Shown: positions 1,074-57,707, counted from the stretch's first letter. The stretch: 64,000 bases of DNA from Spirochaetia bacterium (GCA_965203905.1 CBDBDQ010000005.1:1920001-1984000), one strand, 5' to 3'. The notes: generated by a model not told the origin, from the sequence alone. A program made the numbers and translations.

Positions 1074-4000
1074 TCACCGGACCGACCTCACATCAGCCTC
1101 GCCAGGGCCATGGTTCCGGTCGCCTGCCCCCGCCGTGTCGCCGGGGCCGTTCCGGACAGCTTCCGGTAGCGGGTGATCGCCGGCCGCCGCCGCGGCGTCG
1201 GGGTCGCGGCACAGCCTCTGAATTAATTTTTCAAGTTCAGTGGTAATGATTTGTGCCGCAGGCGTGAATTTCTTCGATGCCTTACTTAGGGCATCTATCA
1301 TTTTTCGGGTCGCCTCATAGGCTAGTTGGTCAGCCGTGGCGTCACCACCAAGCGCCATCTCCGCTTGTACCAGATATTTCTCGGCCAGCATGATAGCGAT
1401 ATCGGTCTCTAAGCTGAGCTTAGTGCCCTGTCTCATTGGAAACGACAGCCTATAAACCTGATCGATCGCTGCGGAACGCCCCCTATGCCTATGCTCATTC
1501 AGCACCACGTACCCGTATGTGGGCGCACTGATATAGACGGTTTTGCCTTCTGTGACGATATGCCCTTCTGCGAGTTTGAGCAGCAAGGGAAACACCTTTT
1601 CGATTAGGTCGTCCACTTTTGCAGGTGTCGTCGGGGCCGCTGGCTCTGGCGGCTGCGCAGGCACCGGCCCCCGTTCTACGAACCAGGTGCGTTCCCGATC
1701 CCCCTTGCGTAGCACCCACGGACCCGGCCGGTCGCGTCGGCGTCCGCACCAGAACCCCAGTGATCGCCGGTTGATTGCTTCCCTGCTTCTGTGCTGCGGC
1801 GGCGCAATTCCGATATGGCGGGAGGCCTCTTCCAGGGCCGCGGACTCCGCGCTAACAGTGACGACGTCGTCTTCCCTCTTGCACGCATCATCGATGTCGG
1901 CGGTTGTAACCTCGCGCGAGCCGAACATCCCGTGCCACGCTTCCAGGAACGCCATTGCCTCAGCTTGTTCCGGCACGGCCTCTTCCTTGACGGCTGCGTT
2001 GCCGAGCCAAGGGTCCAGGGCAGCGTTACCAAGAGCCCACACGATGGCGCTCCGAACGTAGTCGGACCACCTTCCGTAGCTGTTGATCCATGGACGAATC
2101 AAAACCGCTTCGCCACGGGCTACTTCCTCCGCGGTACCCTCAGCCCTGGTGCCGGCAAGCTTCCTCGCGTGATGGTGCGCGGACAGGATGGTAAGCACCG
2201 CGCCGAGCAACTCCGGGCGGTTTTCGCGCACGTACCGCTGCGGGTCGGGGTGGATCCGATATTGATGCAGCTCCGGCTCCATCTCATCGGTGAGCAGCTT
2301 GCACAACAACGCACGGCGCAGCATGTCGCTGCGGAACATCAGGTTGTTGCCGGTGGCGACTACCACCGTACGCCACGGTACCGTTCCGCTCGTGCGCGAT
2401 TCGCCGAGAATCCGGTCACTGATAGAGCCGGGAATGCTGTTGTCGCCACTGCTCAACGCACCTTCCAGCGCCGAGGATCCTAACGCCTGCCCGGGCTCAA
2501 CGTTGTCTATGAGCAGCACTCGCAAGCCAGCCAGTGCAACCGAAATAAGCCGCTTACGTTCCTCGTCCGCGACATCTGCCGCCTTCCGGCCAGAGATCGG
2601 TGACCACTTGGCTGGCGCACGCCCGGTAGCGATAATCGTTGCCAGATCGACCAGCGTTCCTTTCCCCGCGCCGCGATGGTTCGCGGTTATGCCGAACATC
2701 GGCACGTTGCCGGTGACGTAAGTGCGTCCGACGATCGTCAGAACTAGCGTCAGCCATATCGCCGAGTCCAGCGGGCGCGCGAAGTGCGACTCGCTCACCA
2801 CGTCCAACAACACCTGCGCGGCGGCCATGGCGTCGAACCGCGATGGCATCTGCGGCACCAGGTCAGGCGACCAGTCGTCGGTATGGAAGTCCGCGAAGAG
2901 ACCCGACTTCAAGTCGAAACCAGGCTTCGTGATGAGGGACCCGTCGCGCCTCATGGTTGGCGAATCTACGATCCCTTCAAGCAACCGAAAACGCGGGCGC
3001 GAACCGTCCAGCGTGTCCGCCTTGTAGCGGGCCTGGATCGACCCGGTAACGGCCTTGCTGGGGTCTGTGGGCGAAGACTTTCCATTTGTAAGGCGGCGCT
3101 CCCACCGCGTATACATGTCTAATCTGGTTTCCACGTCATCGTCCTTCGCTATGTCGATCCACAGGCTGCCCTCCGGGTTTTTGAGCCCAGAGTAGTCCTT
3201 TGGTAACTGGACGCGACGTAGAGCCGACAACATCCCGCTGGACGCTCCGGTAGAAGTCGATCTCACCGGCGATTCGTATAGTGCGTATTCATCGTTTGGC
3301 GTATCCACCAGAACATCGATAGCCGCGCGGGACCAAGCTAGCCTGTTACCGGACGAGATAGTGATCACAGGACGATCATCGCCTTGCTCGGCGGCGGGGT
3401 CGTCAGAAACAACGCCGGACTGATCGTCCACCGGCCACCGAACCTTATCAAATGCCACAGCTTGGGAGAGGAGTTGCTCCACGTCGCGAGCGCTTCGGTT
3501 CGGGTCTTCGTCCAACCAATCGGAGATGTCTTTACCGTTCGTATTCCGTAGCTCGAACCCCATCGCCGCCGGCAGCACAACCAGCACTTGTTCCACGCGG
3601 GCGTACTTCAGCAGGGACTCTCCGGCCTTCGCCAGGTGCCGCTGGCCGGGAAGGTCGGCGTCGCCGAGCAGCACAACCGTGTGCAGCCCTCGAGGTAGCC
3701 GCCGCGAGTGCGCCGCCGTCCACTTGCCTGCGCCTCCAGCGTTGCATGTGGCTACAAAGCCCAGTATCGCCAGTCGATCCGCGTCCTTCTCCCCTTCGAC
3801 GAGGATCAGGGGCTTGCCGCTGACCGGGACCGCGGCCAGCTCGTGAAGCCGATACGGGATCCCGCGCCCAGCCGGCGGCAACTTCCACACGACCTTGCCG
3901 TCTGCTGTGTGCCGCTGCCGAAACCTCTTCTCGCCGTACAGGCGCACGACTTCGAAGATCTCGTCGCCACGTTCGTCGCGGTAAGCGTACGTTACTCCGG

Positions 4001-4259
4001 AAGGCGGTGGCGAAGCGGCACCAACGGAACCGTCGTTCGCGTCGTGCAGCGGCGGCAGGTCCAGCCTCTCGGCCAAGTCGCTCAGAGTGCCGCCTTGGTT
4101 GCAGCCGTGGCAGAACCAGGTGCACTTGACGGGGTTCGCACTGGCGCTTGCGTGAGCGTCCGCGTGCTCCGGCAGCGGGCAGCAAATCGTAGCCTCATCG
4201 CCACGCCAGCGCTCTGGCGTAAGGTGCTGGTCGATCCACGCGCGCGCCACATTCCTCAT
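1074..4259 (-). CDS. Primase-helicase replication protein (Zn finger, TOPRIM, P-loop NTPase)
   Basis: CCPLPEHAD...WFCHGC zinc finger; LVEGEKDAD and GDADLPG TOPRIM motifs; GKDISDW; Walker A GAGKGTL; LLIDNV Walker B; ATGNN. Confidence 0.85.
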   Translation of the reverse strand: MRNVARAWIDQHLTPERWRGDEATICCPLPEHADAHASASANPVKCTWFCHGCNQGGTLSDLAERLDLPPLHDANDGSVGAASPPPSGVTYAYRDERGDEIFEVVRLYGEKRFRQRHTADGKVVWKLPPAGRGIPYRLHELAAVPVSGKPLILVEGEKDADRLAILGFVATCNAGGAGKWTAAHSRRLPRGLHTVVLLGDADLPGQRHLAKAGESLLKYARVEQVLVVLPAAMGFELRNTNGKDISDWLDEDPNRSARDVEQLLSQAVAFDKVRWPVDDQSGVVSDDPAAEQGDDRPVITISSGNRLAWSRAAIDVLVDTPNDEYALYESPVRSTSTGASSGMLSALRRVQLPKDYSGLKNPEGSLWIDIAKDDDVETRLDMYTRWERRLTNGKSSPTDPSKAVTGSIQARYKADTLDGSRPRFRLLEGIVDSPTMRRDGSLITKPGFDLKSGLFADFHTDDWSPDLVPQMPSRFDAMAAAQVLLDVVSESHFARPLDSAIWLTLVLTIVGRTYVTGNVPMFGITANHRGAGKGTLVDLATIIATGRAPAKWSPISGRKAADVADEERKRLISVALAGLRVLLIDNVEPGQALGSSALEGALSSGDNSIPGSISDRILGESRTSGTVPWRTVVVATGNNLMFRSDMLRRALLCKLLTDEMEPELHQYRIHPDPQRYVRENRPELLGAVLTILSAHHHARKLAGTRAEGTAEEVARGEAVLIRPWINSYGRWSDYVRSAIVWALGNAALDPWLGNAAVKEEAVPEQAEAMAFLEAWHGMFGSREVTTADIDDACKREDDVVTVSAESAALEEASRHIGIAPPQHRSREAINRRSLGFWCGRRRDRPGPWVLRKGDRERTWFVERGPVPAQPPEPAAPTTPAKVDDLIEKVFPLLLKLAEGHIVTEGKTVYISAPTYGYVVLNEHRHRGRSAAIDQVYRLSFPMRQGTKLSLETDIAIMLAEKYLVQAEMALGGDATADQLAYEATRKMIDALSKASKKFTPAAQIITTELEKLIQRLCRDPDAAAAAGDHPLPEAVRNGPGDTAGAGDRNHGPGEADVRSVR

Positions 4260-5271
4260 CTTGCAGCCCCCCGATCCTGCACTCAGTTGCTCTTGTCCAG
4301 TATAACAAAATGAACGAACAAACTACAAGTAAGGGGGTCATGGAATGAGGAATGTGGAGTAGGGGCCGCCCCGCCAGGCGGACATTTTCTGCTGTTGGGT
4401 CCCATCCCGGTCCCTGAGACTTCCATTTTCAGATTCTGTCCGCGGGTCCCTTCTGCTGGGGCCCCAGCTCGGGATTCTCCTCCCTTCCCCCCGTTTCTCC
4501 CAATTTTTTCGTGGCGCGCGCGCCGGCATATGAAGCCCCGCGCGCAGCGCGGGGTGGGAAATGAGCGGGGGGGCGGGGTGGGGGTGGCCGGGGGTCCCTG
4601 AGCGTCTGCGGACCGCCGGAGACGGAGCGCTGCCGCGCCGCGGGCGGCCTGCCGGGCCTGACCGCACCCGCTGAACACCTCGCGAACGCGCCGCGTAGTG
4701 CCCAACCATGAGCGCATGGCCGCTCAACGCCACGCTGAGCCCATTGCCCATGAGCGCACACCAACGGGCACAGCACCACGTCCAACGCTGAGCGCGAGCC
4801 TGAGCAGGGTTGGTGAAGGGAAGGGCGAGCGTCCCGCCGTGGATAGGTGCGGTGCCGGGTGGGGAGCCCAACCCCAAGGCGCCGGCTGGGTCGGCTTCGG
4901 GCGGTGTGGCGCCGGGGTGAGTGACCGCTCGGTCGGGCGGGGGAAGCGGCAGCCGCTCGGGGTGACCGGCGCCGGTGGCGATCCCGACGCCGCACCGGGG
5001 GTGGCAGCCTCGCCGTTGACGCGCACACGTCAAACAGGCCACCCGGCACCGGGATCTGCGCCGCGCCTCGATGCCGGCGTTGCGCCACCGGACACGTGGC
5101 CCGCGGCCTGTCGAACACCGTAGTCAGCACAGCACAGTATGCCGTGACCAGCATCCGGGAGTCTGAGCGCGCTTCGAGCGGTCCTCGGTCGGCGCAGCGG
5201 GGCGAAAGGACGGCGTGAACGCCGCGTAATGCGCCGAACGGCGGGCCTGTGAAAAAAGCGTCTGAGGGGGG

Positions 5272-5300
5272 TTGACTCCCCTAATTTAGATTATGACAAT
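5272..5300 (+). promoter_or_regulatory. Sigma70-like promoter for the small-gene operon
   Basis: TTGACT-17 bp-GACAAT in an AT-rich patch ~300 bp upstream of the first gene of the + operon. Confidence 0.5.
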
Positions 5301-5500
5301 GTATCTTGTAGGAAGCTAATCAAGGGCTTCCGGGGAGGCGAGCAGGCGCGCATCGCAGCGCGCGCCACCAACCAACCGGCAGGGCGGGGAGCCACCGAGC
5401 TTTGATCCGCGCCATGCGTCTCGGGTGGGTGAAGGGCGCACCGCAGCCCACCCGTAGAGCGCAGCACCGGAGGGGGTGCACGGGGTGCAGATCAACCAAA

Positions 5501-5563
5501 CAGCGGCGCGCGCGGGTGCTTCCGACAGGAACGTGGTCCGACTCCACGGCGTGCTGCATACCA
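5501..5563 (+). ncRNA. tRNA-like element 1 (T-arm-like hairpin + acceptor-like stem)
   Basis: CGTGG-TCCGACT-CCACG (5532-5548) followed directly by GCGTGCTG, which can pair with 5501-5509 (or GCAGCAC at 5461 with GTGCTGC); ends ...ATACCA. Confidence 0.3.
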
Positions 5564-5598
5564 ACTCCCGCTGAGCGCGGGAGCACGGGAGGACATAG

Positions 5599-5907
5599 AT
5601 GGACGGGAGAACCGTATGGGTGAAGCCCGGCGACGTGGACGGCCGGATCGAAGCCGGAAACGTTGTCACGGCAACGCGAGCGCTCGATGCGTGGTGCCTG
5701 CGCGGGGACGACGGCAGCACGCCGATCGCCGCCGGCAGCGCGCTTGAGATCGTCGAGGAAAGGGCTTGGGGCGCTTCCATGGCCATGGAACTGCCGGCGC
5801 TGAGCGAAGAGGACGATGCCGGCAGCCGTGCCGCTGACAGCGAGGCATGGGTACAGGCCGGCCTTGAGCTTCAGGAGCTTGGCCTGTTCGAGGTGATCGG
5901 GCTGTGA
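5599..5907 (+). CDS. Hypothetical protein
   Basis: GGAGG RBS, high GC3, overlaps next start. Confidence 0.7.
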   Translation: MDGRTVWVKPGDVDGRIEAGNVVTATRALDAWCLRGDDGSTPIAAGSALEIVEERAWGASMAMELPALSEEDDAGSRAADSEAWVQAGLELQELGLFEVIGL

Positions 5908-6683
5908 GCACGGCGACGATACACGCCAACGGGAGGGTCAACGTGACCCTCCCGAACATCAGCATCCTCGTAGATCGGCAGGACGCCGAGAGCCTGCGCG
6001 ACGCGCTCAACGCGGAGTTGCCGCTGGAGCAGGCCGCGGCGCCGGTAGCGCGTGAACGCGACCTGATGCTCGATCCCACCATCCGCGACATCGACGTGCT
6101 GCGCGCGGCGCAGGCCATCGCAACCGAGCACGCATGCCACGGCGTGGTGAAGCAGCTTGCGCACATGGTGACGCTGTACTGCGGCGGCGATGCCGACGAG
6201 GCGTTCGTACCGGGGCAGGTGATGAGCGACGTTACTGCGCCGCGCATCCGGTGGATCTCGGACGAATGGGTGAACGGGCGCAACGCGACCATCGAGACCA
6301 AGGAGCGGCGCCTGTCGCCGGCGATGGTGGAGCGGACCTACAGGGTTGAGGGCTACGTCCTGAACCGGCATCGCCTGCCGGAGCTTCGCCACACCAAGCC
6401 GTTCCCCAACTACACCGATGCGGAGCGCGCTGCCGAGCAGTGGACGCGCGCTGCCGAGTGGCCGGGGCACACCGAGCCGCCGGCGGACGTGTACGACCCG
6501 CCGGCCGAGGTCGTTGACGACGAGTATCCCGTCCACGTGGGTGACCGCGTACGCGATCCGATGGATGGGCGCTGGCGGACCGTGACGCGGATCGAGGGCG
6601 ACACGGTGTACCTGGCGGACGGCGGGTGCATGTCGGCCGACGAGTGCGGCGAGATCCGGCTGCCGGGCGAGGACCTGGACTGA
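5904..6683 (+). CDS. Hypothetical phage-like protein with C-terminal SH3/KOW-like segment
   Basis: Coupled GTGA overlap; C-term VHVGDRVRDPMDGRWRTVTRIEGDTVYL. Confidence 0.65.
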   Translation: MSTATIHANGRVNVTLPNISILVDRQDAESLRDALNAELPLEQAAAPVARERDLMLDPTIRDIDVLRAAQAIATEHACHGVVKQLAHMVTLYCGGDADEAFVPGQVMSDVTAPRIRWISDEWVNGRNATIETKERRLSPAMVERTYRVEGYVLNRHRLPELRHTKPFPNYTDAERAAEQWTRAAEWPGHTEPPADVYDPPAEVVDDEYPVHVGDRVRDPMDGRWRTVTRIEGDTVYLADGGCMSADECGEIRLPGEDLD

Positions 6684-7093
6684 TGCGGGTACTGACCAAC
6701 CTGGAGGTCAACGACAAGGCGGCTGCGCTCCTGGAGCGCGCCGCCGTCTTTGTGGGCATCGGATGGACGCAGGGCGCGGCAGCGCGGAACGACGCCGGTG
6801 TCCCGGTGTCGCCTACCGCGCCGGATGCGTGGTGCTGGTGCGCAACGGGCGCCCTGCTGATCGCCAGCTACCGCGTGGGGCTGCTGAAGCTGAGCGGCGG
6901 CGATGAGACCGCAGTCCGGCGGGCCGCGTGTGCCGTTCTGGAGAAGCTGATCCGTGAGACCACCGGCCTGCCGGAGGATCGGGGCGGGGTGATTGCGTAC
7001 TGGAACGACCTGGACGGCCAGCGGCAGGCGGACGTGAAGGACGCGCTGATCCGCGCCGCGCGGACGCTGAAGCCGCTCACGGAGGCGTGCTGA
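6683..7093 (+). CDS. DUF6197-like phage protein
   Basis: TGATG overlap; motifs GWTQG, WCATGAL, YWND, V...L.RAA; paralog of 8353-8757. Confidence 0.65.
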   Translation: MRVLTNLEVNDKAAALLERAAVFVGIGWTQGAAARNDAGVPVSPTAPDAWCWCATGALLIASYRVGLLKLSGGDETAVRRAACAVLEKLIRETTGLPEDRGGVIAYWNDLDGQRQADVKDALIRAARTLKPLTEAC

Positions 7094-7575
7094 TGACGGA
7101 TCTGCTGGACGCGCTGAAGCGCAACAACCGGTTGCTCCAGGAGATCGCGTTGCAGTACGGCGCCGGCACCGGGGAGGGCGGCGCCGCTGGTACCCCCGTG
7201 CTGAACACGCCGGAGGCCGTGGCGAACCAGTGCATGGACATGGGCGGCCTGCTGCAAGAGCAGTTGCGGGTGCTGCTGCTGAACACCAAGTCGGAGCTGC
7301 TGGAGGCCGTGACGGTCTACCAGGGCACGGTCAACGCCGCCTCGATCCGGGTCGCGGAGATCCTGCGCCCTGCCATCGTGAGGGGCGCGCCCTACTTCAT
7401 CGTGGTCCACAACCACCCCTCGGGCGACCCGTGCCCAAGCGGGTCTGATACGCGGGTGACGCGGAAGGTGCGGACGGCGGCGGAGTACTTCGACATCGAG
7501 CTGTACGACCACGTGGTCGTCGCGCGGCGCGGCTTCGTGAGCCTGCGGCAGCGCGGCATCGGCTGGGAGGGCTGA
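7087..7575 (+). CDS. radC: RadC-like JAB domain protein
   Basis: QEQLRVLLLN, GTVNAA, HNHPSGDPCPSGSD, DHVVV. Confidence 0.9.
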   Translation: MLMTDLLDALKRNNRLLQEIALQYGAGTGEGGAAGTPVLNTPEAVANQCMDMGGLLQEQLRVLLLNTKSELLEAVTVYQGTVNAASIRVAEILRPAIVRGAPYFIVVHNHPSGDPCPSGSDTRVTRKVRTAAEYFDIELYDHVVVARRGFVSLRQRGIGWEG

Positions 7576-7800
7576 ATGGCAGGGGAAGTGATCCACGGTC
7601 AGGCCGGCCGGGAGACGTTGGTGATCCGGCGCGAGGAAACGCGCTCGTCGCTGACCGCGATCTACTACGCGATCTACGCCAAGAAGGACGGCGAGGACGT
7701 GTGGTACGCGGAGCGGCTCGCCGGGGGCTTGGCGCTGGACGTGGCTGAGGCATGGGGCTGGCGCGGGGAAGTGCCGGCCGACAGCGAGGCAGCATCGTGA
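7576..7800 (+). CDS. Hypothetical protein
   Basis: Abuts radC stop, GGAGG RBS, coding-like codon use. Confidence 0.6.
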   Translation: MAGEVIHGQAGRETLVIRREETRSSLTAIYYAIYAKKDGEDVWYAERLAGGLALDVAEAWGWRGEVPADSEAAS

Positions 7801-7906
7801 ACGAAAGCCGGCAGGAACAGCGTGAGCGTGGTTCAAACCCACCCTGCCGGCAGACCCAGCCCGCAGGCGCTACAGGGCGCCGGGGCACTTCTGGAGGGAC
7901 CCCCGA

Positions 7907-8353
7907 ATGACCGCTGCACAGAGATTTCTCAAGGAGGACCTGGACGACGCGCAGCGCATGGCGCGACTGCGCGCCGCGGCCGTCACGGTCGAGGATCGCA
8001 CCTACAGCACCGTGTGGACCATGCAGGACGGCAGCCGGGTCGAGCGCGGCTGCGCCCGTGGCGTCGCCGCCTACGGCACGCTGCCGTCGCTGGTCGCCAT
8101 GATCGAGCGCACCCTGAAGGCAGACCGCGAGACGATCGTCTACTACCGCCGGTGCGAGGCGCAGGCGCGGTTGCGCGCCAAGCGCACCGGCAGCGCTGCC
8201 TGGTCGGCTGCGGCTGGGCAGTGGGTCATGGCGCGGTTCGAGCTGGAGGCCGACATCCGCCGGCACCTGCGGGAGCTGATCCGGCTGCGCCGTGGCTGGC
8301 AGGCCATCACCGACTACCGCCTCGACCACTACGTGGCGCGGAGCGCTGCCTGA
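7907..8353 (+). CDS. Hypothetical protein
   Basis: GGAGG RBS, high GC3, coupled to next gene. Confidence 0.65.
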   Translation: MTAAQRFLKEDLDDAQRMARLRAAAVTVEDRTYSTVWTMQDGSRVERGCARGVAAYGTLPSLVAMIERTLKADRETIVYYRRCEAQARLRAKRTGSAAWSAAAGQWVMARFELEADIRRHLRELIRLRRGWQAITDYRLDHYVARSAA

Positions 8354-8757
8354 TGGTGGCGCAGCCTCAGACCATCCGCACCGCGGCCGCGGAGGTCCTG
8401 GACGGCGCCGCCCGGTACATCGAGACCGGGTGGTGCCGCTTCTCCACAGCACGCGGCGCCGACAACGTGCCCTGCGCACCGACCAGCACCGACGCGGTGT
8501 GCTGGTGCGCTTCCGGGGCGATCCACGTCGCCGCGCGGCGTAGCGCGCCCCCGCATCGGCTGGGAACCATCACCGAGCAGGCGCAGCGGGCCATGGTCGA
8601 CGCGATCCTGGAGACGCATCCGGAGTTCTTCGACCCCGGCACGCTGCCGATGTGCGCGATTGCCTCCTGGAACGACCACGCGGAGATCGGGCCGACGACC
8701 GTGATTGATCGGCTGCACCGCGGCGCCGAGCTGCTGCGGCTGCCGGCGGCGGCATGA
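8353..8757 (+). CDS. DUF6197-like phage protein (second paralog)
   Basis: GWCR, WCASGAI, IASWND, VIDRLHRGA; TGATG overlap. Confidence 0.65.
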   Translation: MVAQPQTIRTAAAEVLDGAARYIETGWCRFSTARGADNVPCAPTSTDAVCWCASGAIHVAARRSAPPHRLGTITEQAQRAMVDAILETHPEFFDPGTLPMCAIASWNDHAEIGPTTVIDRLHRGAELLRLPAAA

Positions 8758-9029
8758 AGGTTGCCATCCGCGCCGGCATGCGCCTGCAACTGTCCCGCGA
8801 GCCCGCGCGCTTCACCCGCGCGCCGCGCCGGGTCCTGGTGTACCGCCAGGGCGACCGGCGCGCCGTGGTGTGGCGCAGCGACCTGATTCTGATGGGTCGG
8901 CGCGGCCGGCCGTACACCGTGCTGCTGCTGCGCGAGGACGGCGGCGACTGCCGCACCGAGTCTCACCGCACCGTGCCTGCTGCGCTCGATACGGCGCGCG
9001 GCTGGGTAACGGGTGCCATCGCCGAATAG
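8754..9029 (+). CDS. Hypothetical protein
   Basis: ATGA overlap with upstream gene. Confidence 0.55.
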   Translation: MKVAIRAGMRLQLSREPARFTRAPRRVLVYRQGDRRAVVWRSDLILMGRRGRPYTVLLLREDGGDCRTESHRTVPAALDTARGWVTGAIAE

Positions 9030-9096
9030 TGGCGAAATACGGGCCATAGCGCGCCCGTATCGTGCCGGGGCTGGCCGCCCGGTGCCTGAATGAGCC

Positions 9097-9498
9097 ATGG
9101 CCGACAGGAGGGTTGCTTTGAACAACCTCAACTCCGTTTTGATCGAGGGCAATCTGTGCCGCGATCCCGAGCTTCGCTACACGCCGAAGGGCACGCCGAC
9201 CTGCACGCTGGTGCTGGCGTCGAACCGCTCCTACAGGGACCCGGAACGCCAGGGCGAGCGCATCGAGGAAGTCTCGTTCATCGAGACCACGACCTGGGGC
9301 AAGCTCGCCGAAGTGTGCCACGAGCACTTGGCGAAGGGGCGCGGCATCCGCGTGGTCGGGCGCCTGAAGCAAGAGCGCTGGGACGATCCGCACGGCAATC
9401 AGCGCGCCAAGGTCGTGATCGTCGCCGAGCAGGTTGAGTTCCAGCCGAAGCGGCAGCCGGCCCGCCAGACGGCGGAACCGGCAGCCGCTGCCAGCTAG
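9097..9498 (+). CDS. ssb: Single-stranded DNA-binding protein (no acidic C-terminal tail)
   Basis: LNSVLIEGNLCRDPELRYTPKG, WGKLAE, KGRGIRVVGRLKQERW; true start may be the TTG at 9118 after AGGAGG. Confidence 0.95.
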   Translation: MADRRVALNNLNSVLIEGNLCRDPELRYTPKGTPTCTLVLASNRSYRDPERQGERIEEVSFIETTTWGKLAEVCHEHLAKGRGIRVVGRLKQERWDDPHGNQRAKVVIVAEQVEFQPKRQPARQTAEPAAAAS

Positions 9499-9606
9499 TA
9501 CCAAGGGGATGGCGGGGCGCTTCAGCTACGAGAGCGTTCCGCCAACCCCAACCCCTGCGGCCTTCTCTTTGCCGGGTCGAGCCGCAGGGATCGGAGGACA
9601 CACCCT

Positions 9607-9807
9607 ATGCCGAACCGTAGAGGATCGCAACGCCGGCGCCAGGAGCGCCGCGAGAACAGGCGCGTCGAGCGCGAGCTGCTGCACACCGCCATCAAGGACC
9701 TGCGCGCCGCAGTGATCGACGAGGACGCGGGCAACGACCACGTGAGGGACTGCGCGTTCGAGGTCGTCGAGGCCTACGAGCGCGCTGTGCCGGAGCATCG
9801 AGAATGA
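9607..9807 (+). CDS. Small hypothetical protein
   Basis: GGAGG RBS, coupled to next gene. Confidence 0.55.
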   Translation: MPNRRGSQRRRQERRENRRVERELLHTAIKDLRAAVIDEDAGNDHVRDCAFEVVEAYERAVPEHRE

Positions 9808-10004
9808 CCCGCACCATGACCTTGGCCGACCGGGCCGCGAAGCTCGGCCTGCGGGTCGAGACCGAACCGCACGGCGCCGGCGCCGGGATCGCCGGCTACA
9901 CCGTCTTTCGGGGCGGACAGTGGCTGTTCCAGGGGACCGCGGCCGAGGCGCATGCGTTCCTGGACGGCTACGGTGCCGCCCTGGCGCTGCGGTGCCTCCC
10001 ATGA
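9804..10004 (+). CDS. Small hypothetical protein
   Basis: ATGA overlaps on both sides. Confidence 0.55.
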   Translation: MTRTMTLADRAAKLGLRVETEPHGAGAGIAGYTVFRGGQWLFQGTAAEAHAFLDGYGAALALRCLP

Positions 10005-10268
10005 GCGCGCCTGAGGCACTGTGGCGAACCAAGGACGGCAAGGTCGCCATCTTCCGCCTGGTCTACCACGCCCGGCGACCTGGACACCGCCAGCTACCCC
10101 GCCGGCTATGCGCAGCGCAACCCGCGCTTTGCGCCCCTGACATCGCCCCCCGGCTACCCGCTGCAGGTACTGGCCAGCGATGGCGAGCTGCACTACGCCG
10201 AGGCAGCGGACCGGGGGCGCATCAACGCCGACGGCGTGTTCCGCCTGCGGGACCTGCGGCGCGGCTGA
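10001..10268 (+). pseudogene. Small hypothetical gene with about two apparent frameshifts
   Basis: Coding-like frame switches near 10070 and 10135 (C runs): MSAPEALWRTKDGKVAIFRLVYH / GDLDTASYPAGYAQRNP / DIAPGYPLQVLASDGELHYAEAAD...; may be sequencing error. Confidence 0.4.
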
Positions 10269-10311
10269 GGCGCCGCTTCCCCTACCCCCATTCAGACATT
10301 CAGGAGAACCT

Positions 10312-10728
10312 ATGGAACGACATGAGACGTTCGCCGCGGCTGCCCTGCAGGGCGTCATCGCCGCGCGCACCAACTTCGACATCGCCGGCGAGATCGAGCT
10401 GGCGTGGCGCTACGCCGACGGCATGGAAGCCGAGGCGGCGCGCCGCGGCAAGCTGGCGATGGCGGACCAGCTTCCCTACGACTGCGAGGTCACCATCACC
10501 GCCAAGGCCGACTACAGCTACGCCCTGGTCGAGGGCATCGAGGCCGCGACCGAGCAGGGCATCGAGTACTCCAACCGCGATCGCCGCTTGATCGGCGAAG
10601 TACTCGCCGCCTACGGGCGCGCCGAGGACGCCGGCAATTCGTTCACTGGCCGGTGCGAGCTGTCCCACACGTTCGGCGAGGTCTGCCGCTTCACGTTCAC
10701 GCCGAAGCAGGACGACGAGCCGAGCTGA
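10312..10728 (+). CDS. Phage-like hypothetical protein
   Basis: AGGAG RBS; N-term FAAAALQG...AWRYADGM resembles the common phage 'RDYFAA.A.QG...AY..ADAML' motif. Confidence 0.65.
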   Translation: MERHETFAAAALQGVIAARTNFDIAGEIELAWRYADGMEAEAARRGKLAMADQLPYDCEVTITAKADYSYALVEGIEAATEQGIEYSNRDRRLIGEVLAAYGRAEDAGNSFTGRCELSHTFGEVCRFTFTPKQDDEPS

Positions 10729-10781
10729 TCCCGCGCCGGCGGCGCCGCCGGCACCACACCACAACCGCACACGACACGCCT

Positions 10782-10814
10782 GCAGGGCGCCTTCGGACTC
10801 CGGGGGCGCCCTGC
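10782..10814 (+). terminator. Strong GC hairpin (terminator- or processing-like)
   Basis: GCAGGGCGCCTTCGG / CCGGGGGCGCCCTGC followed by TTGTGT (weak U tract). Confidence 0.45.
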
Positions 10815-10821
10815 TTGTGTC

Positions 10822-10872
10822 CGGACGCCCGGGCTGGGCCTGCGCAGGGGTTCGACTCCCCTGCCCCGTCCG
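10822..10872 (+). ncRNA. tRNA-like element 2 (T-arm + acceptor-like stem)
   Basis: AGGGG-TTCGACT-CCCCT canonical T-arm (10846-10862), closed by CGGACG..GGGC / GCCC-CGTCCG. Confidence 0.4.
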
Positions 10873-10901
10873 TAGCCGCTACTGCGGCCAAGGAGCTCCA
10901 C

Positions 10902-11372
10902 GTGAAGGTTGGAGTACCGATCATCGTGATCGCCATGGTGGCGATCCTCGTCATGGGTTGCGCCGGCAGCGAGATCGCGCCGGCAACGTCCGACGCGCCG
11001 GCGCCGGGGAACGGCGACCCGCTGGCAGCGCTGTACGCGGCACCGCCGGCCGGCGCCGCCTTCATCACCGTCGCCGACGTGGACAGCGTGGGACCGGACG
11101 CCCTGTCGTTCGATCCCTTCTACCACTACGGCTACGCCGCCGAGCTGGTGGTGCCGTCCGTTCCCTGGGGCGCGCCGTTCGAGGACCTGAGCCTGGATCT
11201 GGCGGCTTCGGACGCCGTGGCGCTGCCGGTGCACGTCGACATCGACGCCCACTTCACCGCGGCCATCGCCGCCGCCGCAGTCGACGCTCAGCCGGTGGTG
11301 TGGGAGCGCGGTCCGGAGACGCAGCAGCCGCTCCCGGAGGGTTGGGAAAGCCCGCCGCTGGACGCGAAGTAG
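10902..11372 (+). CDS. Putative lipoprotein
   Basis: AAGGAG RBS, GTG start, hydrophobic signal ending LVMGC. Confidence 0.6.
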   Translation: MKVGVPIIVIAMVAILVMGCAGSEIAPATSDAPAPGNGDPLAALYAAPPAGAAFITVADVDSVGPDALSFDPFYHYGYAAELVVPSVPWGAPFEDLSLDLAASDAVALPVHVDIDAHFTAAIAAAAVDAQPVVWERGPETQQPLPEGWESPPLDAK

Positions 11373-11521
11373 CCGGTGGCCGAGTTGTTCCTTGGGGCGG
11401 CAGTCATCGCGGCTGCCGCCCTTCTGGTGTGGGTGGCCGTACGCATCGTGGTGCGGCTGTTCACGCGCCCGGGTGGCGATGGGCCATGACCGGGACCGCT
11501 CTGGCCGGCAGGAGGCGGCGC

Positions 11522-11821
11522 ATGCTGATAGATCTGATCTGGACGGCGCCGCCGGCACTGCTGGTGGTCGCCACGGCCGCCTACGCTGCCGGCTTGATGT
11601 GGGCGCTGGCCTGGGACGTCGAGCGCCTGCGCTGGCGCGAGTTCGACGGCTGGCGCACGATCCTGCGCGATCGCGTCGCCCGGGGCGCGGCGCCGGCCCC
11701 GCCCATCCTGGGCTGCAGCTACTTCGCGCGGCTGCGCTGGCACCGCACCTACGGCTGCGGCTGGCGCCGTGTGCAGCGCGCCCGCATCGCAGCCCGGCGC
11801 TGGGACCGCTCGTTCCGGTAG
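11522..11821 (+). CDS. Small membrane protein
   Basis: AGGAGG RBS; N-terminal hydrophobic helix. Confidence 0.5.
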   Translation: MLIDLIWTAPPALLVVATAAYAAGLMWALAWDVERLRWREFDGWRTILRDRVARGAAPAPPILGCSYFARLRWHRTYGCGWRRVQRARIAARRWDRSFR

Positions 11822-11841
11822 CAGGCGGTCCTACCCCCCTT

Positions 11842-11916
11842 GGCGAGAGGTTTTCCAACACCCGGAGGAGAAGCGGGTCATGACCCGCCGGCAGGTTCGA
11901 GCCCTGCCCTCTCGCC
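11842..11916 (+). ncRNA. tRNA-like cloverleaf element 3 (75 nt, CAT in central loop)
   Basis: GGCGAGAGG/CCTCTCGCC acceptor-like stem; TTTTCC/GGAGAA arm; GCGGG-TCATGA-CCCGC arm; GCAGG-TTCGAGC-CCTGC T-arm; non-canonical D arm and no CCA. Confidence 0.5.
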
Positions 11917-11970
11917 CTACCGGCACCCGGACCGGGAGCCGAAATACACTACCAGGAGGAACAGTGCCAC

Positions 11971-13080
11971 ATGAGCACCCCCGACAGACCCCAACTGCCC
12001 GCCGCGGCCGCGGTGTGCGCCGACCCGCCGGCGACGGTGCCCACCCTCACCGAGCCGGGACCGCTCGACCGCAACCCCGCCGCCGTGTACCTCGCCGCCA
12101 AGGCGTCCGCGGTCGGGCGCCGCGGCCTGCAGCGTGCGCTCAACCGCGCCGCCAAGATCCTGACCAGCGGTATCACCAAGGATGCCCTGAGGGTGGAATG
12201 GACCGAGCTCCGCTACCCGCACGTGGCGGCGCTGCGTGCCTTGCTCATCGACCAGGGCGCCGCGCCCGCCACGATCAACCACCTGCTGTCCGCCGTCCGC
12301 GGCACGGTCAGGGAGGCGTTCAACCTCGGCCTGGTCGACGCCGACACCATGCTGCGAATCGGCAACGTCAAGAGCGTGACCGCGAGCACCCTGCCGGCGG
12401 GCCGCCACGTCGACGTCGGCGACATACGCCGCCTGTTCGACACCTGCAGCGAAGGCGACACCCCGGTGGGCGCCCGCGACGCGGCCATGCTCGCCCTGCT
12501 GTACGGGTGCGGGCTGCGGCGCAGCGAGGTCGTGGCGCTGGATCTCACCGACTACGACGCCGGCGCGGTCACGGTGCGCTCAGGTAAGGGACGGAAGGAT
12601 CGCATCGTCTATCCCCCGACGGGTGGTCGCGCCGCGATCGACGCTTGGCTGGCACGCCGCGGCTTCTGGCCGGGCGCGCTGCTGGCGCCCGTGGCCAAGG
12701 GCGGCAAGATCCAGCATCGCGGCATGAGCGCCCAGGCCGTGATGCTGCGCCTGCGCCACCTGGCCAAGGCGGCCGGCATCAAACCGTTCTCGCCGCACGA
12801 CCTGCGGCGCAGCTTCGTCGGCGAGCTGCTCGACAAGGGCGCCGACATCAGCGCCGTGCAGCAGCTCGCGGGGCACTCCAACGTCTCGACCACGCAGCGC
12901 TACGACCGCCGCCCCGAGGAAGCCAAGCGGCGCGCGGCCGAGCTGCTGCACGTGCCGTACAGCGGTCCGCCGCCGATGCTGCCGGGCAAGCCCGCGGAAT
13001 CGCGGGACGATCCCCCACCCGCCGTTGAGGCCTCGCCGCCCGGGCGCGCCGATCCGCCGCCTGCAGGCGCACCTGGTTGA
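11971..13080 (+). CDS. Tyrosine recombinase (XerC/D-like, N-terminal SAM-like domain)
   Basis: RDAAMLALLYGCGLRRSE, GKGRKDR, HDLRRS, LAGHSNVSTTQRY; catalytic R-K-H-R-H-Y set intact. Confidence 0.92.
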   Translation: MSTPDRPQLPAAAAVCADPPATVPTLTEPGPLDRNPAAVYLAAKASAVGRRGLQRALNRAAKILTSGITKDALRVEWTELRYPHVAALRALLIDQGAAPATINHLLSAVRGTVREAFNLGLVDADTMLRIGNVKSVTASTLPAGRHVDVGDIRRLFDTCSEGDTPVGARDAAMLALLYGCGLRRSEVVALDLTDYDAGAVTVRSGKGRKDRIVYPPTGGRAAIDAWLARRGFWPGALLAPVAKGGKIQHRGMSAQAVMLRLRHLAKAAGIKPFSPHDLRRSFVGELLDKGADISAVQQLAGHSNVSTTQRYDRRPEEAKRRAAELLHVPYSGPPPMLPGKPAESRDDPPPAVEASPPGRADPPPAGAPG

Positions 13081-13327
13081 CCTACGGTGGGAGATACACC
13101 CGCCGGCAGCGGGTCGGCCTCCCACCGAAACGGAGCGTCTGGAGCGGCAGCGTTGCCGCGAGCTCGGCGCATCGAGGGCCTCGCCGCGGCGGATCCGGAG
13201 CTGCGGACGTGGGAGCCGTACCCGTGAATCGAGGGGCGTGTCTCCCACCTTGGCACCTTCCCCCGCTACTTGCCGTGCCCCGGCGCACCGCGTAGGCTTG
13301 TGCCTGGGGTAACACCCCTCCGTAACT

Positions 13328-13368
13328 GCCGCCTTCCCCTGCCGAGTGTCGGGGGGAGGCGGCTTTTT
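13328..13368 (+). terminator. Rho-independent terminator
   Basis: GCCGCCTTCCCCTG / CGGGGGGAGGCGGC stem followed by TTTTT. Confidence 0.75.
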
Positions 13369-13382
13369 GCGTCTAAGGAACG

Positions 13383-13580
13383 ATGCCTGACCTGAACGAC
13401 TGGCGCTTGAACGGCCGGCGCCGACTCGAAGGCCGCCGGCGCACTCCGCCGTGGGTGGGGGTGCTGGTGCTGGCGATGGTGATGTACCTCGCCAGCATCG
13501 CCCTCACCTTCACGGTCGCGTTCTTCCTCGACCAGCGCATCGTCGCCATCGAGCAGCTCCTGGACATCAGGGAGAAGTAG
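13383..13580 (+). CDS. Small single-pass membrane protein
   Basis: AAGGA RBS; basic N-term then WVGVLVLAMVMYLASIALTFTVAFFL. Confidence 0.55.
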   Translation: MPDLNDWRLNGRRRLEGRRRTPPWVGVLVLAMVMYLASIALTFTVAFFLDQRIVAIEQLLDIREK

Positions 13581-13626
13581 GGGAGGTCCCAGCGGGCTGG
13601 GCGGTCCCACTGGGAAGGCGTGTACC

Positions 13627-13980
13627 CCCTCTCTGTCAAACCGTGCAAAGTCTACAAGGGCTGCGCGCGAAAAGGCCAATCCCTGCCTCTCTACGCACTC
13701 CTTTTGGCCATTTCGCCTTGTGGACTTTGGCTGCCGGTCCACAAGCGGTACACAAGGGGTCCCGCAAGCGCGGCCGCCGCCAGCGGGTTCGGCCATCCAC
13801 AGGCGTCAGCACGTAGGTCGCCCTCTCTCTCAACTGTGCAGACTTGACAAGGGGTGCGCGCGAAAATGCCAATCCCTGCCTCTCTACGCACTCCTTTTGG
13901 CAGTTTCGCCTTGTCAAGTTTTGCTGGGCTTGACAAGCGGTAGACAAGGGGTTTCGAGGGACCCGGCAAGCGCGGGGCCG
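13627..13980. repeat. Direct repeat pair (~150 bp unit, 193 bp period) with covarying stems
   Basis: Identical 34-bp core GCCAATCCCTGCCTCTCTACGCACTCCTTTTGGC in both copies; flanking differences preserve pairing. Confidence 0.9.
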
Positions 13981-14481
13981 GTGGGGAACCGCGGGGCCGG
14001 CCTTCGCTGCCTTGCCGCGCCGCCAAGCCCACCGGTACGCTGTCAATAGGGACCGCCCCCGCGGAATCCCTCCCAAGCTGGCCGCCGTCTCCTTGAGAGC
14101 CCAGGAAACGGCGGCTTTCTTTGTGCCCAGTCGCTCAGGCGCTTCAGGAGCGCTCGCAGGCGCCGGATGGTGGGCATGTACCACCTCGGCGCGGCGAGCG
14201 TGCTGTGGCCACAGGAGCGGGCACTCCGCTGGAAATTAAGAGACGGGCGCCCGGTGTCGTTTCCAAGACTCAACGGGCACCCGCGACCAGAGCCCCGGCA
14301 GGTGTCGAGATACCGACGGGAAGCGCTGATCCGTCACTTAATGTACCGCAAGCGCCGCGGCGCGTCACCTGTCCCGAGCGGCACCAGCTTCACCCCCGTG
14401 TTCCGCCACGCGGCCAGTGCTCCCACACGCTGAGACCGCCGACGAGGACGCCGAGCATCCCGCCCCGCCAGCGTGCCGCCA

Positions 14482-15015: not shown

Positions 15016-16380
15016 TTGGGGAAGGGGAAGTTTGTGCGTAGACCACTACGAGAATCCAATGAACGCGGTGCCACCCGCGGCAACGGCCAGCAGAACGGTG
15101 CCGCGCTAGCGACACGGAAACGAGTTCGCAAGGACAGGAGTGATAAACCTGTCATCCCGGCCAGTGCCCGCGGGTTCAGCGACTCGTTAGAATTGGTGAA
15201 TGCTGACATCCGATACAATGTCCGCGCTGCAAAGTACGAAATCTGCCTGAATTTTTTTGACGATCCATCCGGCTGGGAGGAAGCAAACTCGCGTCGCTGG
15301 GCCTACCTGTTCGAACAGGTAGCGGAGCGCTGCGATTTCGCGACCGCCAGTAGTATAAAACCGGCGCGGTTTTCCAGGGAGCTACGCAAGCAGGTAATCG
15401 ATGCGTACGGCTTCGCACACGAGGTCGATCCATTCAAGAGCTGGCTGTTAAGCCTTCCTCCGTGGGACGGGGTTAAACGCCTGGACACTTTGCTTGACCT
15501 CGTTTTCGAGGTCCGCGCCGGTCAAGATCCGGACCTGGTTAAGTGGATCTCAGGTGTCGTGCCCACCACCGCTGTTTGGCGCTGCATGGAGCCAGGCTAC
15601 CAGCAGGACGTTGTGCCGGTGCTGATCGGGGGGCAAGGCATAGGCAAGTCCACTTATCTGCGTGCGCTGCTGCCCGACGATCGGGACGAGTGGTTCGGCG
15701 ACGGGCTGTCGCTCATCTCGGATGACAAGGCGCGGGTGGAAGCGACGTTGGGCAGGGTCATCGTCGAAATGTCGGAGATGGCCGGTTCCACCAGAGCGGA
15801 CCGGGAGCAAATGAAAGCTTATATCTCGCGTCGCAATGATAGCGGCGTCCGGTTGGCCTATCGACGCGATCCCGAGGACATGCCACGCCGCTTTGCACTG
15901 GCCGCGACCAGCAACGACCGGTCATGCCTGCCTGCCGATCCCACCGGCCTGCGTCGCTTCGCGCCGGTGGAGCTGGACGCCAAGATCGCCGGCTGCGGCG
16001 GCGAGCGCCAGCCGGCGATCTTCGTCCGCGAACGGATCGCGACCAGCCGCTCTCAACTATGGGCGGAAGCTCTGGCACGCTACAACGCCGATATCCCACC
16101 GGCCATGCCCCTCAAGCTGGAAATGGGTGCCGCCGCCGAACAGGCCGAACAGTACCGCAACGCCGATGAGGTCCTGGAGGAAAAGCTCCGCGACTGGTTG
16201 TGGGTTCAGAGTGATCCGTTTCGGCTGAAGGATGCCATGGAAGCCGCTGGTTACCGCTCGGAAGCGCCGCCTACCTCCGCCGAGGGAAAACGCGTCGCAG
16301 GCGCCCTGATTCAGCTCGGCTGCACGAGAACGAAGATCCGCGATGCGAGACTGTGGCGGCCACCGTCAGACCTGAGTTGA
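15016..16380 (+). CDS. VapE (virulence-associated E)-like P-loop ATPase/helicase
   Basis: PWDGVKRLD, LIGGQGIGKST, VEMSEM, KAYISRR.D..RLAYRR....PRRF...ATSN, LPADPTGLRRF, QLWAEA. Confidence 0.9.
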   Translation: MGKGKFVRRPLRESNERGATRGNGQQNGAALATRKRVRKDRSDKPVIPASARGFSDSLELVNADIRYNVRAAKYEICLNFFDDPSGWEEANSRRWAYLFEQVAERCDFATASSIKPARFSRELRKQVIDAYGFAHEVDPFKSWLLSLPPWDGVKRLDTLLDLVFEVRAGQDPDLVKWISGVVPTTAVWRCMEPGYQQDVVPVLIGGQGIGKSTYLRALLPDDRDEWFGDGLSLISDDKARVEATLGRVIVEMSEMAGSTRADREQMKAYISRRNDSGVRLAYRRDPEDMPRRFALAATSNDRSCLPADPTGLRRFAPVELDAKIAGCGGERQPAIFVRERIATSRSQLWAEALARYNADIPPAMPLKLEMGAAAEQAEQYRNADEVLEEKLRDWLWVQSDPFRLKDAMEAAGYRSEAPPTSAEGKRVAGALIQLGCTRTKIRDARLWRPPSDLS

Positions 16381-16671: not shown

Positions 16672-17289
16672 ATGAAGCGCTGCTACGCTTGTTTACACCC
16701 GCAACGCGCCGCCATCGACGCCGATCTGCTCCAGGGCATCTCCTACCGGACGGTCGCCGCGCGCTACGACATCAGCGCGGCCGCCCTCCATCGCCATCGA
16801 AGCAAGCACCTGTTCCTGCCCACTGTGGGCGACCTGCGGGGTCCAGCGACCGGGACCATGCAGTACGTCCCCGACTGGTTGCGCTGGGACGGTAGGAAGT
16901 GGCAGCCCTGCGACCCGCCCGACCCCAAAGATGTGATCGAGGTGAGCGGTCGGCCTGTAAGACCCAGCGAGTTCAAGAAGGAGGGCCGCGTGGTGGGCAC
17001 CTACACTCGCAAGACCTATCGGCTGCGCAGGTCAAAGCTCCGCTCCACAGAGCACGCCGTGGGCGACCTGCTGGGGCCGGCTGCCGGGACCACCCTCAAA
17101 CACTGGTTGCGCTGGGACGGCAATGAGTGGCAGCGCTGCGACCCGCCCAACCTCGAAGATGTGATTGAGATGCACGGTCGGCCCGAGCACAAAGGCAACA
17201 TCGTGGACCCCAAGGACCGCAGCCGCGTGCTGGGCACCTACATCCGCAAGACCTATCGGCCGCGCAGATCACGGCGCCAATCCTCGTAG
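16672..17289 (+). CDS. CxxC-HTH protein (terminase small subunit-like N-terminus) with duplicated ~70-aa C-terminal domain
   Basis: CYACLHPQRAAIDADLLQGISYRTVAARYDISAAALHRH; two copies of VGDL.GPA.GT...WLRWDG..WQ.CDPP...DVIE..GRP...V.GTY.RKTYR.RRS. Confidence 0.65.
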   Translation: MKRCYACLHPQRAAIDADLLQGISYRTVAARYDISAAALHRHRSKHLFLPTVGDLRGPATGTMQYVPDWLRWDGRKWQPCDPPDPKDVIEVSGRPVRPSEFKKEGRVVGTYTRKTYRLRRSKLRSTEHAVGDLLGPAAGTTLKHWLRWDGNEWQRCDPPNLEDVIEMHGRPEHKGNIVDPKDRSRVLGTYIRKTYRPRRSRRQSS

Positions 17290-20011: not shown

Positions 20012-20431
20012 GTGCCAAGGCCGCCAGTCTACTCTATCACAGCCTGGACTAGCCTGGATGATGCGCGGCTTGGCCTGGTGTGACGAGCCATCATAGAATA
20101 CCGACTCACAAAGGACTTCGGCACCCGTATGTGGCCCGTGGTCGAGGGGCAACGAATGGACGGTACCGCGCCTCTATCAGACGGCCTTCGTGGGGCTGGT
20201 CATCGCATCTGCCTTGCTGGGATAACCGTCAAGGTGCGCTGCTGCAACCTCTCCCACCGTCTGGTTGACGAAATCGCAATAGGAAACCAACAATCAACGA
20301 CATTGAGAGAGTCGTGCGTCTTCGGGTTCATGCCGGGTCGCAATACAAACAGTTCCGCCAAGGGAATAGCTACCGGACCCGGAGCGAATAGGTCAAGACC
20401 CAAGGAAATGGCTCCTGGCCAGGAGGGAGAG

Positions 20432-57609: not shown

Positions 57610-57623
57610 CTGAGGCTCATCCT

Positions 57624-57707
57624 GCCCGGATGGTGAAATTGGTAGACACGCTAGGTTCAGGGTCTAGTGGCCTTACGGCTGTGGAGGTTCGAGTCCTCTT
57701 CCGGGCA
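57624..57707 (+). tRNA. tRNA-Leu(CAG), CCA not encoded
   Basis: GCCCGGA/TCCGGGC acceptor, TGGTGAAATTGGTAGACA D arm, CTAGG-TTCAGGG-TCTAG anticodon arm, long variable arm, GGAGG-TTCGAGT-CCTCT T arm. Confidence 0.97.

Follow-up and report, generated by a model that had tools for sequence, protein, structure and literature searches.

The spacers of a one-strand gene block ending in a tyrosine integrase gene, in a 64,000-nt stretch of a Spirochaetia bacterium genome (GCA_965203905.1, CBDBDQ010000005.1:1920001-1984000; the whole stretch is hereafter the window), carry small folds that resemble the upper half of a tRNA. The question that this locus raises is what such non-decoding tRNA mimics do between protein genes. 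We identified four of these units, each followed by a small hairpin, a Shine-Dalgarno (SD) sequence and a start codon. To our reading, the chances are about even that they serve as cis-acting processing signals in the polycistronic mRNA of a mobile element, where host enzymes would cut them and the hairpin behind each would cap the 5' end so created.

Anatomy of the tRNA-like units

All four units (E1 to E4; Table 1) lie on the sense strand in intergenic spacers, with the start codon of the following gene 29-55 nt downstream, and they follow a single plan: an acceptor-like stem stacked on a T arm (11-14 bp together, loop TYCRANN), 3-9 unpaired bases, a hairpin of 5-7 bp, an SD sequence and a start codon. 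A preliminary description of the region had reported the T arms at 5532, 10846 and 11891 on the + strand (CGTGG-TCCGACT-CCACG, AGGGG-TTCGACT-CCCCT and GCAGG-TTCGAGC-CCTGC), and these are present as it gave them, as are the small hairpin and SD that follow each fold and the starts at 5599, 10902 and 11971. Direct stacking of the T arm on an acceptor stem, which it had claimed for each, holds at 5532 and 11891, where the acceptor has 9 bp, and does not hold at 10846 (E2), where two unpaired bases separate the T stem from a 6-bp acceptor. Its three elements are all present, but the count is four, E4 at 7807-7851 having been overlooked. E4 begins 6 nt past the stop codon of the upstream gene.

E2 is the loosest of the units in the window, although one paralog stacks it without a gap, and the hairpin and SD after it are invariant across three copies. 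An alternative E2 acceptor, GGGGCG (10803-10808) with TGCCCC (10862-10867), was rejected as the main fold, as it needs the 15-bp hairpin upstream to be melted. In minimum free energy (MFE) folds the operon spacers are strongly structured throughout; for 10760-10901 the z-score is -3.6.

Table 1. Units, genes and other features of the element, in window coordinates
Feature	Position	Strand	Details
Unit E1, miniature cloverleaf	5503..5557	+	acceptor 9 bp GCGGCGCGC/GCGTGCTGC, MFE fold
E1 inner parts	5503..5557	+	D-like stem 2 bp; 4-bp stem with 4-nt loop; T arm CGTGG-TCCGACT-CCACG
E1 trailing parts	5565..5601	+	hairpin CTCCCGC/GCGGGAG (5565-5583), SD GGGAGG (5587-5592), ATG 5599 of gene 5599-5907
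Unit E4, minihelix	7807..7851	+	perfect 9-bp acceptor GCCGGCAGG/CCTGCCGGC, 12-nt linker, T arm GTGG-TTCAAAC-CCAC
E4 trailing parts	7866..7909	+	hairpin GGCGC/GCGCC (7866-7881), SD GGAGGG (7893-7898), ATG 7907 of gene 7907-8353
Unit E2, looser minihelix	10822..10872	+	acceptor 6 bp CGGACG/CGTCCG; T arm 7 bp GCAGGGG-TTCGACT-CCCCTGC
E2 trailing parts	10875..10904	+	hairpin GCCGC-TACT-GCGGC (10875-10888), SD AAGGAG (10890-10895), GTG 10902
Unit E3, cloverleaf-like	11842..11916	+	acceptor 9 bp GGCGAGAGG/CCTCTCGCC; D-like arm; T arm GCAGG-TTCGAGC-CCTGC; z-score -4.1
E3 middle arm	11842..11916	+	6-bp stem, 4-nt loop CAUG
E3 trailing parts	11921..11973	+	hairpin (11921-11941), SD AGGAGG (11954-11959), ATG 11971 of integrase gene
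Promoter-like site TTGACT-17-GACAAT	5272..5300	+	consensus match only; 1 found vs 0.4 expected
One-strand operon	5599..11821	+	unknown genes, DUF6197 x2, RadC, SSB, small genes
DUF6197 genes	6626-7093 and about 8364-8757	+	in operon
RadC-like gene	7087-7575	+	in operon
Hammerhead-type-II-like fold, weak	9030..9100	+	Rfam RF02276, 22 bits vs gathering score 37
SSB gene	about 9121-9498	+	in operon
GC-rich 15-bp hairpin, terminator-like with poor U tract	10782..10814	+	after gene ending at 10728
Putative lipoprotein gene	10902-11372	+	GTG start at 10902
Tyrosine integrase gene (int)	11971..13080	+	Pfam PF00589, E 1.1e-29

Conservation in paralogs and related elements

The source genome comprises 8.0 Mb in five contigs at 66% G+C, and in it the window corresponds to C5:1920001-1984000. 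The gene block at 5599-13080, which has the integrase gene at its 3' end, is on sequence grounds a multi-copy mobile element. Paralogous copies with 73-93% identity occur on contig C3 (about 65143-46438, minus strand), on contig C4 (1586-6561, partial) and at C5:4778239-4767035 (C5b), and all four units of the window are kept among them. Homology between paralogs breaks near the units; for example, the gene at 7576-7800 is replaced in C5b while E4 stays.

The module also occurs in related elements, which we located by way of the integrase and of the first operon gene; the gene junctions that it occupies there are in part different ones. In total we count 27 units in seven sequence-unrelated families, namely E1-E4 and three further families designated A, B and C. 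A second genome of the genus (loci L040 and L042) holds families B and C together with homologs of E2 and E3; another metagenome-assembled genome (L043) has families A, C and E3; and A, B and C occur on two metagenome contigs, L124 and L138. In every family the unit is followed by 3-9 bases, a hairpin of 5-7 bp, an SD and a start codon. Stems are unrelated among families, so the earlier statement that shape is common and sequence is not stands, and the acceptor differs even between E3 homologs (GGCGAGAGG in the window vs TGGCGGCGC in L042). Structural conservation in homologous elements, on which the preliminary description had let its proposal turn, is thus seen in paralogs and related elements alike. 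The motif does not track the integrase family at large, since only 2 of 80 integrase-homolog loci have a T-arm motif within 500 nt upstream, one a true unit (L042) and the other (L112) apparently a chance match. Among these 80 loci, units are confined to the closest relatives.

Evidence that the units fold as RNA

Among 25 tabulated units, 307 of the 324 stem pairs are Watson-Crick, 15 are G.U, one is A.C and one is of another kind, and these counts point to an RNA fold of the sense strand. A tRNA-like consensus was recovered by unguided RNAalifold for E1 and for family C; MAFFT, applied to family B and to all families together, left the acceptor strands out of register. The inner stem of E1 changes on both sides between homologs (CC/GG to CG/CG), acceptor pair 7 of E4 is A-U in the window, G.U in C3 and G-C in C5b, and in the trailing hairpin of family C an A-U pair is replaced by C-G. 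The T loops within E1, E4 and C vary solely at positions 55, 57 (always a purine), 59 and 60, and never at 54, 56 or 58, which in these aligned copies is the pattern of tRNA T loops.

Frequency of the fold relative to chance

We searched with a symmetric descriptor whose loop has the form TYCRANN. The T stem must have 4 bp or more, the acceptor stacked on it 7 bp or more (6 in a relaxed form), and the linker may not exceed 60 nt. Between 4400 and 13100 it finds three matches on the sense strand (four at the relaxed setting) and none on the antisense strand at either. Frequency in shuffled sequence was another check named beforehand, and 1000 dinucleotide-preserving shuffles of the same interval gave a mean of 0.045 matches (0.106 relaxed) and a maximum of 1 (2), so that the fold is much commoner here than chance would produce.

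Across the genome (7.99 Mb scanned, both strands) the descriptor matches 182 times, with 45 matches in tRNAs called by ARAGORN and 137 outside them. Of the non-tRNA matches, 19 are followed by an SD, a start codon and an open reading frame (ORF) of at least 50 codons, and 8 of those 19 fall in the four element copies. In a set of 102 loci (1.21 Mb) the descriptor has 33 non-tRNA matches, of which 10 precede an SD, a start codon and an ORF of 40 codons or more; these 10 are all on the sense strand and in five loci of this element family (L040, L042, L043, L124 and L138). A further match at C3:74133 on the + strand (GGGCG-TCCGACT-CGTCC, with a 7-bp stem) is next to another, more distant integrase homolog, which is encoded on the other strand, and may be chance.

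Comparison with tRNAs, Rfam families and attachment sites

ARAGORN calls a single tRNA in the window, a tRNA-Leu at 57623-57708, and calls none of the units; it likewise calls none in the loci L001-L003. No unit has a 7-nt anticodon loop, the middle arms having 4-nt loops or being absent. An identity element of the AlaRS type (G3.U70) was considered and rejected; only the E1 of the window has it, and its paralogs do not.

On the Rfam tRNA-Sec model E3 scores 25 bits, against a gathering score of 47, and E1, E2 and E4 have no Rfam match at E values up to 10. Over its full length the mascRNA-menRNA model RF01684 aligns with family B (L124 14079-14131), with 26.7 bits and an E value of 0.0044 in 801 nt. 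As the gathering score is 42.5 bits, family B resembles mascRNA in shape only. The C4-type families give no match at E values up to 10 in 4000-14000, and with only the weak tRNA-Sec and mascRNA matches returned, the earlier suggestion of kinship with the C4 and CI RNAs of phages is not supported as family membership. At gathering thresholds, eight related loci yield no bona fide ribozyme and only the group II intron of L124, where domain RF02003 matches at 1173-1342 on the minus strand with 57 bits (gathering score 49), at a position upstream of the related element.

When the 25 units were compared with the 58 host tRNAs (blastn-short), the best matches spanned 8-18 nt, were confined to the T arm and never covered the 3' strand of the acceptor, and matches to E3 within the genome were to its paralogs only. 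The units are therefore not attachment-site (att) copies of tRNA 3' ends in this genome. Moreover, the integrase homologs of L040 and L041 lack E3, so E3 is not needed as a phage-type attachment site (attP). The best host match to E3 (17 of 18 nt) is the T arm of an ARAGORN tRNA outside the window, at C5:4211301-4211376, which has the anticodon UUA and is labelled 'tRNA-Stop'.

A proposed role in transcript punctuation

The conserved portion of the units is the acceptor/T-arm stack with its T loop, which is what RNase P, RNase Z and the CCA-adding enzyme recognise in a tRNA. With an acceptor-like stem on a T arm, a tRNA-type T loop and a position beside protein genes, the units have the structure that characterizes t-elements. 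The host encodes an RNase Z (333 bits, over the cut-off) and a type-A RNase P RNA (218 bits). Of the 58 host tRNA genes, none has CCA directly after it and only one has a C at +1; host tRNAs consequently need endonucleolytic 3' cutting, for which an enzyme of the RNase Z type is the expected route.

From the folds, their conservation, strand and position, and from the presence of these enzymes in the host, we infer a scheme of cleavage, including the enzymes responsible and the purpose of the hairpin, as follows. The units would represent a tRNA reduced to its top half and built into the mRNA of an integrative mobile element. Host RNase P would cut at the 5' end of the acceptor-like stem and host RNase Z just past its 3' end, thereby splitting the transcript into gene-sized pieces and releasing a mini-tRNA of about 45-95 nt. 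After the cuts the downstream piece would carry the trailing hairpin close to its 5' terminus, which the hairpin could protect while leaving the SD free. As an outcome, the stability and translation of the genes at 5599, 7907 and 10902 and of int would be uncoupled from the sequence upstream. Punctuation by processing, as the preliminary description had also proposed, fits the anatomy of the units, the enzyme set of the host and published precedents. Its narrower suggestion of control over recombinase translation appears unlikely, because only one of the four units precedes int and the close int homolog in L040 has no unit before it.

A bolder form of this proposal, which we advance tentatively and hold to be somewhat less probable than its failure, is that tRNA top-half mimic, capping hairpin and SD together make up a portable 'cut here' cassette that recruits RNase P and RNase Z, is swappable with a self-cleaving ribozyme at some junctions, and would be the first bacterial equivalent of tRNA punctuation in mitochondria, of t-elements and of mascRNA. 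Such a cassette would be a natural analogue of synthetic ribozyme-plus-hairpin insulators (RiboJ). Once released, the mini-tRNAs may also be given a CCA end and affect host factors.

Several observations weigh against processing by tRNA enzymes. Some of the regularity is built into the descriptor, in which T54, C56 and A58 are fixed and G.U pairs allowed. Covariation within families is weak, with 3-5 close sequences per family, and in E1 it does not attain significance, the observed score being matched or exceeded by 58 of 500 shuffles; the E3 of C5b has an A.G mismatch and the E1 of C3 a C.A mismatch. The stacks measure 11-14 bp, mostly 13-14, vs 12 bp in standard tRNAs, the junction between acceptor and T stem in E2 holds 0-4 unpaired bases, and the units lack the 3' RCCA that would help RNase P. 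Units are also dispensable in places: L040 and L041 have no unit before int, and at L040 5095-5150 family A is cut down to the 3' acceptor strand, with its hairpin, SD and small ORF retained, from which it follows that units can be lost from the module. Finally, the family is narrow, the first operon gene being found in 2 of 92 genomes of the order.

Alternative explanations

The same folds would be expected if the units gave rise to stable, trans-acting tRNA-like small RNAs, serving as decoys or sponges for factors that bind the acceptor/T-arm half, perhaps bearing CCA, with mRNA processing as a side effect. D-like arms with GG are kept in several units (families B and C, and the E3 of L042), mascRNA and plant t-element RNAs are reported to be stable products, and the neighbouring genes are RadC, SSB and DUF6197, types that occur in anti-defence or leading regions. 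We nevertheless consider this explanation unlikely, given that the units diverge widely outside the top half, are dispensable in some copies and hold a fixed place before hairpin, SD and start that suggests a role in cis. Anticodon nucleases in particular could not be decoyed by RNAs that have no 7-nt anticodon loop, and the decoys against tRNA-targeting defences that had been suggested for this locus are without support. There is also only a small chance that the units act uncut, as mRNA stabilisers, translational insulators or binding sites for proteins such as a T-loop enzyme or EF-Tu. Spacers that are structured throughout, and the short distance of the units from the start codons, would suit such elements, as would the position of E4 so soon after the upstream stop codon that a terminating ribosome would melt it. 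A generic stabiliser, however, needs neither a T-loop signature nor an acceptor/T stack of tRNA length, and the comparable tRNA-like mimics, plant t-elements and mascRNA, are all cut as far as the reports describe them.

Explanations that assign the units no function in RNA seem to us more doubtful still. One would treat them as features of the DNA, whether relics of tRNA-gene attachment sites (attP, attL, attR), recombination hot spots at module boundaries or signals in single-stranded DNA. E3 does lie just upstream of a tyrosine integrase gene, attP sites often sit near the integrase gene and copy tRNA 3' ends, and the breaks in paralog homology near the units would be in keeping with recombination there. 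Yet no unit copies a tRNA of this host past the T arm, and E3 is intact between operon and int in chromosomal copies, although integration through it would split it. The absence of E3 beside the int homologs of L040 and L041, the ratio of 15 G.U pairs to one A.C and the restriction of all units to the coding strand likewise argue against a DNA-level role, to which we give little credence. Nor do we expect, except at long odds, that the units are decaying pseudogenes of a former tRNA cluster, now functionless. Their shapes do grade from the near-cloverleaf (E3, and the E3 of L042) to the bare minihelix (E4 and family A), and some copies have been lost. But 322 of 324 stem pairs are kept when G.U is included, the T-loop invariants are kept, and the layout of hairpin, SD and start is constant over seven families and five genomes or contigs; decay would not spare precisely the part that processing enzymes read.

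Relation to known processing signals

Among prokaryotes, the t-elements of Haloferax volcanii are tRNA-like processing signals for RNase P and RNase Z that lie upstream of 5S rRNA; unlike the units, they are archaeal and chromosomal and do not form a repeated module with hairpin and SD in a mobile element. In plant mitochondria, t-elements have mRNA 5' and 3' ends at their borders, which Forner et al. (2007, PMC1920247) ascribe to RNase Z and RNase P. As portrayed in that account, these t-elements resemble the units in being non-decoding tRNA-like folds that keep the T-arm motif and the acceptor stem beside protein genes in long transcripts. They differ in being organellar and, in what is reported of them there, in having no fixed hairpin and SD after the fold and no sequence relation to the units; their RNA ends were mapped experimentally, whereas the units are known from sequence alone. 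The mascRNA and menRNA at the 3' ends of MALAT1 and MEN-beta are described as tRNA-like RNAs of about 55-60 nt with a reduced anticodon arm, excised by RNase P and RNase Z (PMC4919922). Their context is that of vertebrate nuclear long non-coding RNAs (lncRNAs) rather than bacterial, and family B, with 26.7 bits against 42.5, is not a member.

Tyrosine integrase genes are also adjoined by tRNA-derived sequence at tRNA-gene attachment sites, a likeness that these share with E3. In contrast, the cores of such sites duplicate the 3' part of a tRNA of the host, while identity of the units to tRNAs of this host stops at the T arm, and units also occur far from int and always on the coding strand. 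The C4 antisense RNA of phages P1 and P7 is reportedly processed from its precursor by RNase P, and the CI RNA of P4 is a small mobile-element RNA that RNase P releases from a longer transcript. Unlike the units, C4 and CI are antisense regulators without a canonical T arm.

A parallel in purpose is found in integrase-associated prophage operons, in which multiple hammerhead ribozymes flank single genes; the proposal there was that they divide one long RNA into mRNAs the length of single genes (Perreault et al. 2011, PMC3088659). As that report presents them, these operons share with the present one a position beside an integrase gene and the proposed purpose, with genes such as ardA in the prophage case; the prophage hammerheads self-cleave, whereas the units would rely on host RNase P and RNase Z. 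A hammerhead-like fold also occurs in the window at 9030-9100, in the spacer that separates gene 8754-9029, with its stop at 9029, from the SD of SSB. It has three stems and the GAAA, but its core CUGAAUGA has one extra base after A6 relative to the consensus CUGANGA...GAAA, and with this non-consensus core and a sub-threshold score it falls short of the type II hammerhead model. Natural variants with such a core insertion have low activity in the examples described (PMC3088659). The fold is 90-93% conserved in three paralogs, with changes in loops or keeping pairs, and a nearby slot in relatives, before a small ORF upstream of SSB, is taken by a family A unit. The ATG of the SSB ORF at 9097 is out of frame in paralogs, owing to a 1-nt indel, and the conserved SSB start is probably a TTG or GTG about 7 nt after GGAGGG, near 9121.

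Other features of the element and its surroundings

The promoter-like site upstream of the operon would place E1 within the 5' leader. This leader, about 290 nt in all, looks structured, and upstream of E1, in 5400-5500, there are two more hairpins (about 5424-5455 and 5466-5481) whose stems vary between paralogs yet pair. A primase-like gene at 1074-4259 is divergent from the block, and a VapE-like helicase/primase gene lies at 15016-16380. Directly 3' of the integrase gene there is a 95-nt direct repeat (13639-13733 and 13832-13926, 86% identity, 193 nt apart); tandem duplications also occur at 16818-17283. A large ORF at 20129-22510, within the region common to contig C3, has collagen triple-helix repeats and a weak, sub-threshold match to a LapA domain.

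A distant DNA search of phage and plasmid collections found no relative of the element, and neither did a search of viral contigs with its first operon gene. Among public sequencing runs, a search returned no RNA run that contains the stretch. DNA runs labelled coral metagenome and sponge metagenome share words with window positions 5300-12100 (0.23 and 0.22, respectively), and hundreds of contig pieces at 80-99% likeness in DNA runs indicate that many variant copies of the element exist.

Implications

Processing signals that mimic tRNA are established in organelles, archaea and mammalian lncRNAs, so the signal type itself is already known; new here would be signals of the t-element and mascRNA type as a repeated module in a bacterial mobile element. 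Full-text literature searches returned no report of non-decoding tRNA-like modules punctuating a bacterial or mobile-element operon, though supplements of the cited papers may list cases, and in the literature compared, as far as its accounts extend, punctuation of bacterial mobile-element operons is by self-cleaving ribozymes only. If our proposal is true, the seven unrelated families would form a natural data set on minimal substrates of bacterial RNase P and RNase Z, and the combination of unit, hairpin and SD would be a compact natural part for insulating genes in synthetic operons. For the elements themselves, cutting of the units would mean that transcript punctuation is handed to enzymes present in every host, a strategy that would be host-independent and suited to horizontal transfer.

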